Shown piece after piece: positions 1,498 through 7,865 of a stretch of DNA of 50,679 nucleotides. Under the pieces are notes generated by a model. The model did not search any database. It worked only from the letters and a program-made list of their open reading frames with translations, and had not been told where the DNA came from. The stretch comes from Patescibacteria group bacterium (lineage in GTDB: Bacteria; Patescibacteriota; Minisyncoccia; UBA6257; MFKM01), in assembly GCA_038065115.1 (NCBI GenBank), contig JBBTRS010000004.1, forward strand, positions 1 to 50,679, in the 5' to 3' direction. The first letter of the stretch is position 1, and every line of letters begins with the position of its first letter. A program made the position numbers and the translations under genes.

Positions 1498-2061
1498 TCA
1501 AAATCTCAACCACTTAAAAATGCTTTCAAGCAAGGAATCTTCGTATTCTTCTTCAATTAACTTTTGGCTGATAATGCCGCGAATAGCCGAAGAAACTCCA
1601 ACATCAACGAAAATTTTGAGATAAGGATTAAAATGGGTTTTTCTTTTGATGATTAATTCTTCAAGATTTTTGTCTTCGTTATCTGGCCGGAAACAGAATT
1701 TTTCTAAATCGCTGAATAAAAAAATTTTATCGATAATGGTGATTCCTTTTTCGTCAATTTTGAATTTAATTATTTCCGGCTGGCGATGGCCTAAAATTAA
1801 AACCGATATTTCCGCCAAGAAAATAAAAACGGCGAAAAGAAAATTTTTCTGCCAGACGGCAAAAGCAATGATCAGTATCGCGATGATAAAACTAAGCCAA
1901 TACCAGGAAACGTCTTTTTCGTAATAACGGAAAGCCGGCGCTTGCCATTCCACCGTCGCGGATCCACGCGAATTGGTCGCGGAATTACGCAGACCAGATG
2001 CGGATTCGCGCAGGTTAACAGCTAATCGGGTATTTTTAACTTCTTTTTTAATATCGTCCAT
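1498..2061 (-). CDS. Hypothetical membrane protein (two predicted TM helices)
   Basis: The ORF-track entry 1498..2175 was trimmed to the internal ATG (MDDIKKEV...) because its first 38 codons overlap a tRNA gene. Hydrophobic stretch: WYWLSFIIAILIIAFAVW...FLFAVFIFLAEISVLIL. Confidence 0.55.
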   Translation of the reverse strand: MDDIKKEVKNTRLAVNLRESASGLRNSATNSRGSATVEWQAPAFRYYEKDVSWYWLSFIIAILIIAFAVWQKNFLFAVFIFLAEISVLILGHRQPEIIKFKIDEKGITIIDKIFLFSDLEKFCFRPDNEDKNLEELIIKRKTHFNPYLKIFVDVGVSSAIRGIISQKLIEEEYEDSLLESIFKWLRF

Positions 2062-2096
2062 ATAGAAATCGCCGCTGGTTAAGCCTGCTCTGTTTG

Positions 2097-2168
2097 TAGC
2101 CCCAACCGGAGTCGAACCGGTGTTTTTGGGATGAAAACCCAACGTCCTAACCACTAGACTATGGGGCC
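2097..2168 (-). tRNA. tRNA-Glu (anticodon UUC)
   Basis: Hand-folded 72-nt cloverleaf. Acceptor GGCCCCA/TGGGGCT, D-arm GTCT-AGTGGTTA-GGAC, anticodon stem TTGGG/CCCAA with loop TTTTCAT, T-arm ACCGG-TTCGACT-CCGGT, discriminator A. CCA is not encoded. Confidence 0.8.
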
Positions 2169-2204
2169 GCGTCAATCAATAAATACCAAAATTCAGCAAT
2201 TAAA

Positions 2205-3791: not shown

Positions 3792-3828
3792 TTTAATTTA
3801 TAGTACAATATTATTGAATAATAATAAA

Positions 3829-4881
3829 ATGCCTGCTATCAACTTGCTCCCCGTATTAATTTTTATCATTAAAAAGGTATTTGGTAAAAATACAGCCAGT
3901 CGTTTACTTAAATTGCTAAGTAAAAATGAGAGTTTTTACCACGTTAATTCCATATATGATTTTGACGAGAAAAAATCTGTTAAACACTTAGTGCTGCTAC
4001 TTCCCGGAAAGGGTTGCGCTTGGGCTCAAAAAACCGGCGGTTGCACAATGTGCGGTTTTTCTCAAAAAATTAGACAAATCGGTAAAAATTTTACTGCCCA
4101 AGATCTTATTGCATTATACAAAATAACCGAAATTATGACCGAGGAGGATAAGCCATACACGTTAAGTATCTATAATGCTGGAAGTTTTATTAACAACGAA
4201 GAAATTCCCCTAGAGGTTCAAAAAATAATATGCCAGAGAATTAAACAGCATCCGACTATTAAGAAATTAGTGATTGAATCTCGGGCTGAATTTGTGACAG
4301 ATGATAAAATTAAGTTTTTGAAAAAAGGGCTAGGAGAAAAATTATTAATCATATCCATAGGACTAGAAACCCAGAATGACAAAATAAGAAATATTTATAT
4401 TAAAAAAGGGCTTTCTAAAGAAACCTACGAAAATGCGCTTAAAATAATCAAACAAAATGGGGCTAGGTCTTTAACATATATTTTTATAAAACCAATTTAT
4501 TTAAACGAACGAGAGGCTATAGATGAAGCGATTAATACGGCAAAATATGCTTTCGGGGCGGGAAGCAATGAAGTGGCATTTGAATCGGCTTTTATCCAAG
4601 AGGGGACAGTGATGGAGCAATTTTATCGGCGGGGAGAATTCAGACCTCCTTGGTTGTGGAGTATCATTGAGGTTATTAAAGGGACATGTAATTTAGGCGA
4701 TGTTCGTTTAGGCGGCTTTGAAGACGAACCCCCTCCAATTGCTATCCCCTCAAACTGTTCTAAGTGTTCAGAGAAAATTGAAGAAATGATGCAAAAGTAC
4801 CGAGAAATTAACGATATTAAGCTATTTGATAATCTTGATTGTGAATGCAAAAAAGAATGGCAGAAATCCGTTAAACTTTAA
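3829..4881 (+). CDS. Radical-SAM-like Fe-S enzyme with a non-canonical Cx8Cx2C motif (TIGR01210 / archaeosine-synthase-beta RaSEA-like family)
   Basis: Motif GKGCAWAQKTGGCTMCGF, a TIM-barrel-like GLETQND segment, PPWLWS, and C-terminal CSKCS...CEC cysteines. Start moved to the first ATG; the track start at 3814 is TTG. Family assignment is from memory of motifs, not a search. Confidence 0.6.
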   Translation: MPAINLLPVLIFIIKKVFGKNTASRLLKLLSKNESFYHVNSIYDFDEKKSVKHLVLLLPGKGCAWAQKTGGCTMCGFSQKIRQIGKNFTAQDLIALYKITEIMTEEDKPYTLSIYNAGSFINNEEIPLEVQKIICQRIKQHPTIKKLVIESRAEFVTDDKIKFLKKGLGEKLLIISIGLETQNDKIRNIYIKKGLSKETYENALKIIKQNGARSLTYIFIKPIYLNEREAIDEAINTAKYAFGAGSNEVAFESAFIQEGTVMEQFYRRGEFRPPWLWSIIEVIKGTCNLGDVRLGGFEDEPPPIAIPSNCSKCSEKIEEMMQKYREINDIKLFDNLDCECKKEWQKSVKL

Positions 4882-4898: not shown

Positions 4899-5354
4899 TT
4901 ATAAATCTTTTTCCATTATTATCTCGTAATGGTTTTTATGTCTATATCTTTTTTTTATTTTAAAACCAAATTTTTCATAATACAGAATTAGCCCTTTTCC
5001 TTCATGCACTTCAATTTTTACTTTATTAAGCCCTAATTTTTTAGCAACATCAAATACTTTTTGAGTTAATAAACTCCCTATGCTTTGTTTTCTATATTCG
5101 GGCATAACTGCTAATTTATACAATCTAACCACATCGTTTTTAATTTCGTAACGCACCGCTCCCGCAATTTTTTCTTTTATTTTTGCCGTAAAAATTTTTG
5201 CCCCGTTTTGTAATTCCTTTATTATTTTTTCATTTGTATCGTTTGCTCTAGTAATCAAAAATCCTTGTTTATGCGCAACGGCATAAGCATTATTTGTTAA
5301 TTCAACTATTTTTTCTATATCTTTATCGTTAATATTTTGTATTATAATATTCAT
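4899..5354 (-). CDS. GNAT-family N-acetyltransferase
   Basis: 151 aa. Acetyl-CoA binding motif region: LAVMPEYRKQSIGSLLTQKVFDVAKKLG. Confidence 0.8.
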   Translation of the reverse strand: MNIIIQNINDKDIEKIVELTNNAYAVAHKQGFLITRANDTNEKIIKELQNGAKIFTAKIKEKIAGAVRYEIKNDVVRLYKLAVMPEYRKQSIGSLLTQKVFDVAKKLGLNKVKIEVHEGKGLILYYEKFGFKIKKRYRHKNHYEIIMEKDL

Positions 5355-5380
5355 TACATTAGAGTATAGAACAAATTAAA

Positions 5381-5406
5381 AGGAGACACCATTTATGGTG
5401 TCTCCT
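5381..5406 (-). terminator. Intrinsic terminator (11-bp stem AGGAGACACCA / TGGTGTCTCCT, 4-nt loop)
   Basis: Perfect hairpin followed on the minus strand by TTTAATTTG. It lies 19 nt downstream of the 37-aa mini-ORF stop. Confidence 0.75.
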
Positions 5407-5424
5407 CAGTAGCTTGTGATCAAC

Positions 5425-5538
5425 TTAATCCTGCTGATCACAACACATACATGTGCTGTATTTTACTGCTTTGCTTCTTTTGCTTTTCACGGTTTTAGGC
5501 AAACCTTGCGCAGAACGCAGTAGCTTAACATGCTTCAT
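5425..5538 (-). CDS. Unannotated 37-aa Cys-rich peptide MKHVKLLRSAQGLPKTVKSKRSKAVKYSTCMCCDQQD (candidate RiPP precursor)
   Basis: Hand-translated. SD GGAGGTGA lies 7 nt upstream of the ATG. The ORF sits 37 nt downstream of the rSAM-SPASM gene on the same strand and is followed by a strong terminator. Basic leader-like N-terminus; C-terminal CMCCDQQD. Confidence 0.65.
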   Translation of the reverse strand: MKHVKLLRSAQGLPKTVKSKRSKAVKYSTCMCCDQQD

Positions 5539-5575
5539 GATTTCATCACCTCCTTTTTATTCTAAATTTACAAAA

Positions 5576-7006
5576 TTATTTTTCTTCAGTAAATTCAGAT
5601 GGGAATGTTGGCGTGAATACAGAAAAAAAATTCTGGCCTCTATCTTTTTGCGACACGATTTTCAAATATGCCTTCATAGCAATTTCTATTTCTCGTCGTG
5701 TTGTTTTACACCAATCCTCGTCGTTTTTCACAATATCGCCATGTTTTTTCCAATGCATGTAGTAACAGCCGCCTCCACAGATATATTTAGCCCAACAATC
5801 TGCACATCCCGGCCTTCTCAATACTCCATTTTGAAAAAAAACTTTGCGAATATCACGAAAATCGTTCTTTTGAATATTGCCTAAAACAAAATCCTGCTCT
5901 CCAGTGAAACGAGGACAGGGGTAAATTGTTCCATTGGGAGAAAAAGAAAGAACTGATGTTCCAGCTCCGCAATGAAATTGTCTTGTTATGCGAAAATAAA
6001 GAATATTAATAAACTTTGAAACATTTATAATCCCAATATATTCTTTGTTATTCGCAGCAGAAACCATCCACCTCGCGGCCTCCTCGATTCCCTTTGAAAA
6101 TTTATCACATTCATCATTATTAAGACCACGACTTAATCCATAAGCACTTTGAGATCTGGCATGAATTCTTTTTATGCCTAAATTCAAAACAATGTGTCGA
6201 TAAATTAACGACACAAAATTGCTTGCATATGGTGTTATCGTAGGTCGTGCCTGCACGCTAATATTAGGAAATTTTGATAATTTTCTAATATTATTCTTCA
6301 CCGCATAATAACTTCCCTTGCCCGAAATAAATCTTCTTTCTTTATTATGAACAAACTCTGGGCCATCAATACTTACAACCAATTTAACATTAAATTGATT
6401 AAGAAACTGAAGATATTCTTTGGTAAGCAGGGTGGCATTTGTAGTGACAAAATAAACAATTCGTCTATTTTTCGCCTTCTTTTCAGAATACAAAATACTT
6501 TTCTTTAAAACATCCCAATTCATAAACGGTTCCCCGCCAAAAAAACCAATAAGGCATTCTTTTTTATTCCCACAATGAGAATAAAAATAATCAATTGCTT
6601 TTTTGGCAACCAACCAAGACATATTGCTTGCGGGTCCATTATATGATCCTCCTCCGCCAAAACAATAGCCACATTTCATGTTGCATTTATGACTGATATT
6701 CAAAGAAATTCCACCTAAAATATTTTCACCAATTTCGTTCTCGGATTCATCAAAAGGTTCACTCGCAGGATTACGATTTAAAAGCCCAACCTTGATCAAT
6801 TCATTAATAACATCGCGAATTTCTTTTTCTTTGTATCCCAAAAAAAGTAGACGAGAAATTATGTCTTCTTTTTTTTCCGATTTTTGTCTTGATAAAATTT
6901 GGCTGCCTAATTCATCGACAACGAATACTGTACTGTTGAAAATATCAAGACCTATGCAATTCCCTTCTTCGTAAATGAGATGAACTTTGTTCTTATGCAA
7001 TATCAT
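5576..7006 (-). CDS. Radical SAM / SPASM-domain peptide maturase with an N-terminal RRE (PqqD-like) region
   Basis: CNMKCGYC (CxxxCxxC). SPASM cysteines: CGAGTSVLSFSPNGTIYPCPRF and RPGCADCWAKYICGGGCYYMH. The first ~90 aa resemble a PqqD-like recognition element. Start set at the second ATG (MILHKNK), which is preceded by GGAGGTG. Confidence 0.85.
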   Translation of the reverse strand: MILHKNKVHLIYEEGNCIGLDIFNSTVFVVDELGSQILSRQKSEKKEDIISRLLFLGYKEKEIRDVINELIKVGLLNRNPASEPFDESENEIGENILGGISLNISHKCNMKCGYCFGGGGSYNGPASNMSWLVAKKAIDYFYSHCGNKKECLIGFFGGEPFMNWDVLKKSILYSEKKAKNRRIVYFVTTNATLLTKEYLQFLNQFNVKLVVSIDGPEFVHNKERRFISGKGSYYAVKNNIRKLSKFPNISVQARPTITPYASNFVSLIYRHIVLNLGIKRIHARSQSAYGLSRGLNNDECDKFSKGIEEAARWMVSAANNKEYIGIINVSKFINILYFRITRQFHCGAGTSVLSFSPNGTIYPCPRFTGEQDFVLGNIQKNDFRDIRKVFFQNGVLRRPGCADCWAKYICGGGCYYMHWKKHGDIVKNDEDWCKTTRREIEIAMKAYLKIVSQKDRGQNFFSVFTPTFPSEFTEEK

Positions 7007-7198
7007 ATCCACACCTCCCATTTTAAGTTTTCAAATTTAACCTAGATTAATCTAAGTTAGCTGGCCTCAGTAAATCATATTAACAATTTATGTCAAGTAC
7101 GTGTGGTAATGTGCAAGGACATTTGGCGAGTTTTGCCCTATTAAAACAAGATATTTGACAGCCTCTCTTCCGACTGCAAAAAAGGATGGCGAAAGCTA

Positions 7199-7222
7199 GT
7201 TAAACTTTAAAAAGTTTGGCTG
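7199..7222. repeat. 24-bp exact direct repeat, copy 2
   Basis: Identical to 4870..4893. Covers the last 7 codons and stop of the GNAT gene 7200..7865. Confidence 0.9.
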
Positions 7223-7865
7223 CCAGCCAACGGTAATATTTATTATAAAAAGGATTTTCCCAAAGCAATAAAACTCCGTAATCCAAACTTTCCGGGTCCT
7301 TAAAATAATTAGGGATAGCTTTAATTATTTTTAAACCTGATTTTTTATAAAAATCAATTTCTGGATCTAATGACCTGTGACCTTTTTCGGTATCAGTGAC
7401 GGCATTTATATATTCCTCTACAGTCATCTTGTTTGCATATTTATAATACAGAGGTAATCTACCGCCGAGCATTCCATATTTAACATTGTAGCGAATAGCC
7501 AGTTTGCCAATACCTTCCAAGAGTTGCGTGCCAACTCCCAAATGCTGATAGGAAGGCATTACGCTTAAATCCACGCCATAAACTACACGACCATCTGCTT
7601 TATGGGAATTTTTGATAAATCCGTTATCAGTTATTTCATACCAGGTAAAAGCACTATTATTAAAATCATAATCAACTCTTTCCGTAAAAACTACCCCAAT
7701 AATTTCTTTATTGCTTTCTGCCACCAATGCTCCCCCCGGAAATGTTTTTATCCTTGATTCAATCATTTCTTTTGAGGCAGATTTTTCTTTACCCCACGCT
7801 ATTTCTTCTATCAACAAAATTTTAGGAATATCCTCGTTTTTCGCTTGTCTTATCTTAATTTTCAT
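7200..7865 (-). CDS. GNAT-family N-acetyltransferase (221 aa, with C-terminal extension)
   Basis: GNAT core: VDLSVMPSYQHLGVGTQLLEGIGKLA. Confidence 0.75.
   Translation of the reverse strand: MKIKIRQAKNEDIPKILLIEEIAWGKEKSASKEMIESRIKTFPGGALVAESNKEIIGVVFTERVDYDFNNSAFTWYEITDNGFIKNSHKADGRVVYGVDLSVMPSYQHLGVGTQLLEGIGKLAIRYNVKYGMLGGRLPLYYKYANKMTVEEYINAVTDTEKGHRSLDPEIDFYKKSGLKIIKAIPNYFKDPESLDYGVLLLWENPFYNKYYRWLAAKLFKV

Follow-up and report, generated by a model that had tools for sequence, protein, structure and literature searches.

We analyzed a window of 50,679 nucleotides from a Patescibacteria (Candidate Phyla Radiation, CPR) metagenome-assembled genome (MAG; contig JBBTRS010000004.1 of assembly GCA_038065115.1), and concentrate here on a short open reading frame (ORF) on its minus strand (5425..5538), which is probably the precursor of a peptide made on the ribosome and modified after translation (RiPP) acted upon by the product of the adjacent gene. 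With the stop codon TAA (5425-5427) included, the ORF translates to the 37-amino-acid (aa) peptide MKHVKLLRSAQGLPKTVKSKRSKAVKYSTCMCCDQQD. Its ATG (5538-5536) lies 37 nt downstream of the stop codon of a gene for a 481-aa radical SAM (rSAM)/SPASM peptide maturase (5576..7021, minus strand) and is separated by 7 nt from the Shine-Dalgarno sequence GGAGGTGA (5546..5553, minus strand). The peptide gene is followed by an intrinsic-terminator-like hairpin with a T-rich tail (5370..5407, minus strand; 11-12 bp with 6 GC pairs and a loop of 4), of which the hairpin proper (5407-5380) starts 17 nt past the peptide stop. The stem has 12 pairs by pattern scan and 11 by folding, and the folding of this region against shuffled sequences gives z = -6.1. 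An earlier note, based on the DNA letters of the window, had described this ORF with its translation, the 7-nt Shine-Dalgarno spacing, the 37-nt gap to the maturase and an 11-bp-stem terminator, and our check of the sequence bears out each of these. Comparable hairpins lie 3' of the peptide gene in L001, L002, L086, L089, L166 and L171 (L-numbers denote the collected maturase-homologue loci). Beyond the terminator there is a gene for a 151-aa GNAT N-acetyltransferase (4899..5354, minus strand), a conserved neighbor of the maturase-peptide pair. The GenBank accessions of the flanking GNAT (MEK7624161) and the rSAM maturase (MEK7624162) are consecutive; hence, the peptide appears to be unannotated in that record. 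An additional 10-bp hairpin (GUGAUCAGCA...UGUUGAUCAC; 5414-5443, minus strand) covers the last codons and the stop of the peptide gene just ahead of the terminator; a similar one is seen in L171 (GCGATC...GATCGC), while it is absent from L001.

Comparison of related loci establishes the ORF as a genuine gene, one that belongs to a rare family, is under purifying selection and is strictly coupled to the maturase lineage. The maturase family is tight: a search of 5.8 billion proteins yields 14 clusters that are 44-100% identical, and the next relatives reach no more than 32%. We found a homologous ORF of 37-43 aa 3' of the maturase in all 12 close-relative loci (maturases 42-100% identical), the count comprising the in-family loci with downstream sequence or gene calls: the window, L001, L165, L171, L002, L085, L086, L167, L089, L166, L170 and the P0003 contig (the ORF of L002 recurs unchanged in L003 and L004). 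For rSAM-SPASM enzymes that are more distantly related, the same pattern search covered about 155 loci and recovered no homologous mini-ORF. Thus, as is expected of a precursor, the short ORF co-occurs with one maturase lineage (12/12 in-family against 0/~155 out-of-family loci), and the ground for refutation named in the earlier note, a lack of conserved mini-ORFs next to homologous maturases, does not apply. The peptides from the related loci are 27-84% identical to that of the window, with pairwise ratios of nonsynonymous to synonymous substitution rates (dN/dS) of 0.09-0.44, and the codons for the invariant Cys and Asp residues show synonymous TGT/TGC and GAT/GAC exchanges. A AAAGGAGGTGA-like Shine-Dalgarno sequence is present 4-7 nt ahead of the peptide start in all loci. 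In the subgroup of peptides ending in CMCCxWxD the maturase stop codon TGA sits within this Shine-Dalgarno sequence, and in L170 the maturase and peptide genes overlap (ATGA), an arrangement which suggests that the two genes are translationally coupled in this subgroup. An exhaustive hidden Markov model (HMM) search of 1.84 billion proteins at E <= 0.001 picked up two weak non-family matches and four peptides of the family, of which two were the queries themselves; it contributed the peptides P0129 and P0131, while a word-indexed search with the peptide profile gave just two called proteins.

An alignment of 12 distinct peptides (37-43 aa) reveals that M1, K2, G12, C30, M31, C32 and D37 are invariant. 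C33 is found in 11 of the 12, the remaining peptide, that of L166, having acquired Gly at this position through a single T-to-G change. D37 is the final residue in every peptide (12/12), and the spacing from the CC dyad to this Asp is always three residues. The proposed core spans residues 30-37 (CMCCDQQD; 5428..5451, minus strand), with a family consensus of CMCCxxxD-COOH. Both of the overlapping Cys-X3-Asp (CX3D) motifs first noted in this core are indeed present in the window; however, they differ in their conservation. C33-x3-D37 is the signature of the family and its only family-wide CX3D (C33 in 11/12, D37 in 12/12), whereas C30-x3-D34 is confined to four of the 12 peptides, the other eight having T, Q, M, I, S, G or N at position 34. 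In the larger subgroup, CMCCxWxD, position 35 is always Trp, which places this residue two positions ahead of the terminal Asp. Within the subgroup that lacks Trp35, P0129 has the core CMCCTHLD, and the window, L001, L165 and L171 share CMCCDxxD. The region before the core is strongly basic throughout the family (net charge +5 to +11). At the L166 locus (54-1462), where the peptide ends in CMCGQWTD, the called maturase begins about 65 residues short, with a tblastn match reaching slightly further upstream; this variant might reflect decay of the copy or an error in sequencing, or else signal that Cys33 is dispensable.

The maturase itself is recognized by the Pfam models Radical_SAM (PF04055; score 51.2 > cutoff 29.5) and SPASM (PF13186; 30.5 > 21.5), as well as by Fer4_12 and the NCBIfam SPASM model TIGR04085 (62.6 > 27). 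Its cluster motif, C113-N-M-K-C117-G-Y-C120 (6662..6685, minus strand), is invariant in 70 sequences, and its SPASM region (5708..5971, minus strand) has seven conserved Cys (C351, C369, C406, C409, C415, C419 and C438). It thus combines the CxxxCxxC motif with a C-terminal SPASM region of about seven Cys, the hallmarks of the radical SAM/SPASM peptide maturases, as had been noted at the outset. Among the NCBIfam family models the best scores are those of QhpD (TIGR03906; 259.6 bits against a cutoff of 453), ScfB (TIGR03974; 246.7 against 425), the nif11-type maturases (242.2 against 518.7) and PapB (NF047865; 241.4 against 340). These four are nearly tied, and the protein stays under every curated family cutoff. 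The initial likening of the enzyme to PapB, therefore, does not extend to membership of that family, as it scores equally well on the QhpD, ScfB and nif11-type models. Three of the top four models, namely QhpD, ScfB and PapB, represent thioether-forming maturases of Cys-containing peptides. The score on the anaerobic sulfatase maturase model is 102 bits, and the list of 25 families contains none for a mycofactocin maturase. PADLOC returned for this locus nothing beyond generic matches to a viperin-like radical SAM core, hence giving no defense-system assignment.

The closest solved structure by sequence is CteB (PDB 5WGG), which the family profile matches at E 5.5e-80 over residues 9-446, with all seven SPASM Cys of the maturase aligning with cysteines of CteB. 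An AlphaFold2 model built from 70 sequences has a predicted local distance difference test score (pLDDT) of 92 and a predicted template-modeling (TM) score of 0.92. A Foldseek comparison of this model with CteB gives TM scores of 0.81/0.88 over 453 columns that include the RiPP recognition element (RRE) of CteB. TigE, anSME and ChlB rank far behind CteB as structural neighbors, with anSME coming next after it. The N-terminal RRE-like domain of the maturase (residues ~7-77; 6791..7003, minus strand), located in the AlphaFold2 model and aligned with CteB by HMM and Foldseek, is predicted to have four strands (7-35) followed by three helices (37-77), with pLDDT above 90. This arrangement resembles the topology of an RRE (a three-stranded sheet plus three helices), and the assignment draws on the modeled fold and on homology to CteB. 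The maturase has three domains (RRE-like, rSAM and SPASM) and falls within the clade of CteB/ScfB, QhpD and PapB, but in none of the curated families. In CteB, auxiliary cluster I has an open site that is ligated by a Cys of the substrate (PMC6231123, PMC10177961).

Residues 1-29 of the peptide (5452..5538, minus strand) form the proposed leader, with a net charge of +9, the invariant G12 and a putative RRE-binding strand, MKHVKLL. We infer this role from the structure of the CteA-CteB complex, in which the leader of CteA binds the RRE of CteB as an added beta-strand, and auxiliary cluster I has its open iron coordinated by a Cys of CteA (PMC6231123). Similarly, a 28-residue leader of QhpC is needed for binding to QhpD (PMC7876137), and the leader of the window peptide, at 29 aa, is close to it in length. 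The start of the window peptide, MKHVKLLRS, resembles those of other precursors of this clade: a bona fide SCIFF peptide (L168, 1183-1320; TIGR03973 79 > 50) begins with MKHIKTINK, a bona fide QhpC (L010, 5359-5691; NF037958 171 > 50), encoded directly downstream of a qhpD whose product scores 744 > 453, begins with MKHMKPLNK, and an unclassified multi-Cys/Asp precursor (L005, 3689-3892) begins with MKHIKLINK. Judged from these sequences, RREs across the clade may recognize their precursors by the MKH[IVM]K start. The SCIFF leader is likewise basic (net +5) and starts with MKHIK; hence, the basic leader, at first thought unusual, is normal in this clade.

These observations indicate that the 37-aa peptide is very probably the substrate of the adjacent maturase. 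Ranthipeptides are defined by a thioether from a Cys sulfur to a non-alpha carbon, installed by an rSAM enzyme, and our favored reading, in which we have reasonable though by no means full confidence, is that the two genes form a ranthipeptide-type precursor-maturase pair for which a Cys33-Asp37 thioether is the most likely predicted product. Under this proposal residues 1 to ~29 (MKHVKLL...) would serve as the leader and dock as an extra beta-strand on the RRE-like domain of the maturase, as CteA does on CteB, which would put the 8-residue C-terminal core CMCCxxxD into the active site. There a Cys thiolate of the core would bind the open iron of auxiliary cluster I, and the 5'-deoxyadenosyl radical would take a hydrogen atom from a carbon adjoining a carboxylate of the invariant C-terminal Asp37. 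The resulting Cys33-Asp37 thioether, closing a five-residue C-terminal ring over a Cys-X3-Asp stretch, would be the family-wide modification, with an optional second, overlapping C30-D34 link possible in the CMCCDxxD subgroup that includes the window. The remaining Cys30, Met31 and Cys32 might serve in recognition, persist as free thiols in the product or donate further crosslinks. We propose a single Cys33-Asp37 thioether because Asp37 is the only universal acceptor and C33-x3-D37 the only fixed spacing. In the reaction of PapB, a carboxylate C-terminal of the Cys is essential, and the Cys thiol becomes attached to the carbon alpha to this carboxylate; spacings of n = 0-6 in Cys-Xn-Asp are tolerated, and even the carboxylate of the C-terminus can be used (PMC9413430, PMC12373016). 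QhpD, too, makes thioethers from Cys to Asp or Glu (PMC7876137). The C33-x3-D37 pair, with its carboxylate acceptor C-terminal to the Cys in 11 of the 12 peptides, agrees with the acceptor rule of PapB (PMC12373016, PMC9413430), and the CX3D logic with which the ORF was originally brought to attention holds for this pair.

Several observations weigh against this proposal. As the maturase falls under all the curated cutoffs, its chemistry cannot be transferred by family membership. A single Cys33-Asp37 link leaves the invariance of C30, M31 and C32 unexplained, the strictly terminal placement of the Asp likewise lacks an explanation, and the Gly33 of L166 calls either for another Cys as donor or for a defective copy. 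Regarding the leader, the PqqD-like N-terminus initially ascribed to the maturase stands as an RRE-like fold that aligns with the RRE of CteB, but not as a Pfam assignment, since PqqD (PF05402) has no match in residues 1-90 even at E <= 10. Moreover, the resemblance of the leader to those of SCIFF and QhpC extends over just 5-6 residues, and a profile-profile comparison with SCIFF (hhalign) aligned six columns at a probability of 3.9%, which is not significant. We also found no leader peptidase or transporter conserved across the family loci; the GNAT gene of the window lies past the terminator, separated from the peptide gene; and in L085 and L170 it is not downstream at all.

The invariance of C30, M31 and C32, for which one link does not account, leads to the alternative that the maturase acts on this precursor but crosslinks it in another pattern, which we regard as possible, if on the unlikely side. 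The variants to be considered are a sactionine (Cys to C-alpha), D37 linked to C30 or C32 as the donor, a terminal Asp carrying two thioethers, and non-acidic acceptors. A doubly linked Asp would be joined at the C-alpha next to the free alpha-carboxylate and at the C-beta next to the side-chain carboxylate. The constant position of D37 as the last residue suggests that a free alpha-carboxylate matters, and PapB, for which n in Cys-Xn-Asp may be 0-6, can make its link at the carbon alpha to the carboxylate of a C-terminal Gly, D- or beta-residue (PMC12373016, PMC9413430); however, C-terminal L-residues with a side chain on C-alpha were not processed by PapB (PMC12373016). The L166 variant with CMCG retains C30 and C32, and CteB, despite being the closest solved structure, does not use Asp and links instead to Thr. 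Nevertheless, the fixed three-residue spacing from CC to D in all 12 peptides best fits a CX3D link, and positions 34-36 are variable, so that M31 is the only universal candidate acceptor besides D37.

A bolder proposal, which is speculative and which we rate as rather unlikely in either of the two forms that follow, is that C-M-C-C...D-COOH constitutes a new minimal functional module of the genome-reduced Patescibacteria and at least one archaeon. In the first form, the product would be stapled at its C-terminus and would bind a metal (Cu or Fe-S) through the Cys/Met/Cys set that remains; in the second, the terminal Asp would be crosslinked at both C-alpha and C-beta and would require the free alpha-carboxylate. 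Rather than being a secreted antibiotic, such a product might be capped by the GNAT and used intracellularly, in a cofactor-like manner or as a protein-like entity such as QhpC.

It is improbable that the peptide is processed by the maturase through a chemistry other than thioether formation, such as a C-terminal oxidative decarboxylation or C-C crosslink as in MftC, an oxidation of Cys as in anSME, or a Cys-Trp link in the CMCCxWxD subgroup. MftC acts on the C-terminal Tyr of MftA by oxidative decarboxylation and C-C crosslinking, and the invariant terminal residue of the present family recalls such C-terminal chemistry of SPASM enzymes. The position of anSME as the next structural neighbor, the invariance of Trp in the larger subgroup and the failure to reach any family cutoff also speak for this possibility. 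On the other hand, the best models are mostly those of thioether formers (~240-260 bits), as against 102 bits for the anaerobic sulfatase maturase and the lack of a mycofactocin maturase model among the 25 families; the three invariant Cys beside a carboxylate acceptor are a ranthipeptide signature; and the subgroup to which the window belongs has no Trp.

We also considered and rejected as highly improbable the idea that the ORF is a regulatory leader peptide, in essence a Cys-sensing, Cys/Met-rich upstream ORF for attenuation that governs terminator read-through into the GNAT gene. While three Cys codons and one Met codon are clustered near its 3' end, with a strong terminator 17 nt on and then the GNAT gene, the peptide follows the maturase and not the GNAT, staying with the former both in L165 and the P0003 contig, which have the GNAT upstream, and in L085 and L170, which have none downstream. 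Furthermore, amino acids are conserved along the whole peptide (M1, K2, G12, D37-COOH) with dN/dS well below 1, the fold comprises two independent hairpins with no competing antiterminator, and there is no Rfam leader match at the gathering thresholds. Finally, the idea that the ORF is open by chance in a spacer between genes, as might be suspected from its very small size and apparent lack of annotation, is effectively refuted by the comparative data, namely the retention of the ORF in 12/12 related loci with a conserved Shine-Dalgarno sequence, an invariant C-terminus and purifying selection.

Turning to known systems that resemble the precursor-maturase pair, the SCIFF/thermocellin system (CteA/ScfA, TIGR03973; CteB/ScfB, TIGR03974) shares with it the seven-Cys SPASM pattern of the maturase, CteB being the closest structure across all three domains, and a short, basic precursor with an MKH[IV]K start and C-terminal Cys. 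Neither cassette has a conserved dedicated protease or exporter. However, scans of the family peptides against Pfam and NCBIfam gave no match even at E <= 10, and the window peptide, tested directly against TIGR03973 (cutoff 50), likewise has no match at E <= 10, while the L168 SCIFF used as a control scores 79.3; the maturase, in turn, reaches 246.7 bits on the ScfB model against the cutoff of 425. The core here has three Cys within eight residues and ends in an invariant Asp, in contrast to the six Cys of SCIFF, the precursor gene is downstream of the maturase rather than upstream, and a GNAT partner is present. The hosts are also different: SCIFF is found in Clostridia, whereas the present family comes from a Patescibacteria MAG and an archaeal contig.

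The freyrasin pair PapA/PapB is similar in its Cys-X3-Asp logic, where the acceptor follows the Cys toward the C-terminus (PMC9413430, PMC12373016), and its rSAM-SPASM enzyme bears an RRE (PMC12715619), to be compared with the RRE-like domain of our maturase; the score of our maturase on the PapB model (241.4 bits) is comparable to those on the other models of the clade. It differs in that the maturase falls below the PapB cutoff of 340, there is one universal CX3D in place of six, and the acceptor here is the C-terminal residue itself, accompanied by the additional invariant C-M-C. QhpD, the rSAM enzyme that modifies QhpC, the gamma subunit of quinohemoprotein amine dehydrogenase, provides the best NCBIfam model for our maturase (259.6 bits); further parallels are the comparable leaders (28 aa against 29 aa) and, in L010, a qhpC gene with an MKHMK start placed directly downstream of qhpD. 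The co-encoded Qhp modifying enzymes have been argued to be single-turnover enzymes (PMC7876137), and the apparently translationally coupled gene pair of the present family would suit a similar stoichiometric, single-turnover use. Nevertheless, the maturase is below the QhpD cutoff of 453, and the window peptide has no match to QH_gamma (NF037958, cutoff 50), on which the L010 QhpC control scores 171. The product is also a 37-aa peptide lacking Trp as against an enzyme subunit of ~80 residues, with no qhpA, B, E, F or G genes.

A further parallel is offered by mycofactocin, where the invariant extreme C-terminus of MftA (Val-Tyr) is the site of rSAM-SPASM action, MftB is a separate RRE and the cassette lacks an exporter. 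The present family resembles it in having a small precursor with an invariant extreme C-terminus as the proposed rSAM-SPASM site, and in lacking an exporter. Here, however, the RRE-like domain is fused to the maturase and the core residues are Cys and Asp, and the variability of residues 34-36 argues against a small-molecule cofactor. The pair is a small uncatalogued branch of the ranthipeptide-type RiPP systems, which fails the curated cutoffs of the SCIFF, PapB and QhpD families and matches no curated NCBIfam or Pfam precursor-maturase family in the copies searched. In searching the literature for ranthipeptides and RiPPs of Patescibacteria and CPR we came across only survey-type papers, none of which appears to describe this family. 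The concept of cysteine-crosslinked rSAM peptides is well established; the pair stands apart from the three systems in its small core, its invariant CMCC...D-COOH, the downstream and apparently translationally coupled precursor gene, the GNAT partner and the host range. An 8-residue core with one universal Cys-X3-Asp ending at the C-terminus is among the smallest imaginable for this enzyme class, and such a minimal substrate makes a clean natural test case for the choice of donor and acceptor by thioether-forming rSAM enzymes. In addition, the engineering of PapB exploits C-terminal macrocyclization, of which this family may be a natural example. The retention of a GNAT without a conserved protease or exporter poses the same puzzle as SCIFF, that is, the purpose of widespread, intracellular-looking crosslinked peptides. 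Genes as small as this can escape standard annotation.

An orthologous GNAT (36-79% identity) adjoins the pair in 10 of the 12 loci. It is downstream in most of them, while in L165 and the P0003 contig it precedes the maturase; thus, its adjacency survives rearrangement. It probably acetylates the peptide, with tailoring and self-protection as putative purposes. Its characterized relatives in PDB and NCBIfam are of a generic kind (RimI, Naa30/50, PaiA-like), and a further homolog, P0135 (48% identity), occurs in a different context on a short contig and is uninformative. Immediately upstream of the maturase gene in the window there is a second GNAT-like gene (221 aa; 7200-7865, minus strand), and further upstream an S9 prolyl oligopeptidase gene (8103-10145, plus strand; Peptidase_S9_N, 284 bits). 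We considered this peptidase as a candidate leader peptidase and rejected it, because it, like the second GNAT-like gene, has no counterpart in the other family loci; both genes probably lie outside the cassette. In L002 (2519-5217) the GNAT is followed by a flavoprotein and a UbiA prenyltransferase, which are not conserved elsewhere. A cysteine tryptophylquinone (CTQ)-like chemistry in the Trp-containing subgroup, considered in connection with this flavoprotein, was rejected, as its matches to QhpG, LodB and GG-reductase are weak and sub-cutoff, and the gene is not conserved.

With respect to its distribution, the family also appears to be present in an archaeon. In L085 (1620-3307; contig GC 45%) the pair is followed by a gene for the archaeal RNA polymerase subunit H, rpoH (NF007129, 113 > 83), and then by an ORF that reads as the start of RNA polymerase subunit B, and it is this adjacency that points to an archaeal origin of the contig. 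Scans of the contigs of GTDB species representatives recovered nothing with the single maturase and, with the family alignment, relatives at no more than 34% identity but no family member, whereas a scan of metagenome contigs yielded just four in-family loci (L085, L086, L089 and L118) among 80. The IMG/VR scan gave no family member, hence no sign of phage carriage.

Precursor-like genes of a different kind were encountered upstream of maturases related to the query. These are putative precursors of 71-105 aa rich in Lys and Cys in L094 (828-1115), L095 (3589-3891), L007 (1090-1407) and L011 (11-226), the last two from MAGs of Deltaproteobacteria. In L094 the peptide has no NCBIfam match at E <= 1e-5 and the maturase scores 337 bits on the ScfB model (cutoff 425); the peptides of this type may represent another uncatalogued class of precursors. 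Elsewhere in the window, beyond the GNAT gene and on the opposite strand, a 355-aa radical SAM protein (3814-4881, plus strand) is recognized by the model for RaSEA, a radical SAM protein of archaeosine biosynthesis (TIGR01210; 229.7 > 212.15). The only tRNA gene of the window, for tRNA-Glu with the anticodon UUC (2096-2168, minus strand), is overlapped by a listed 225-aa ORF (1498-2175, minus strand); given this overlap, the true start of that ORF, if it is a gene, is downstream of the tRNA.

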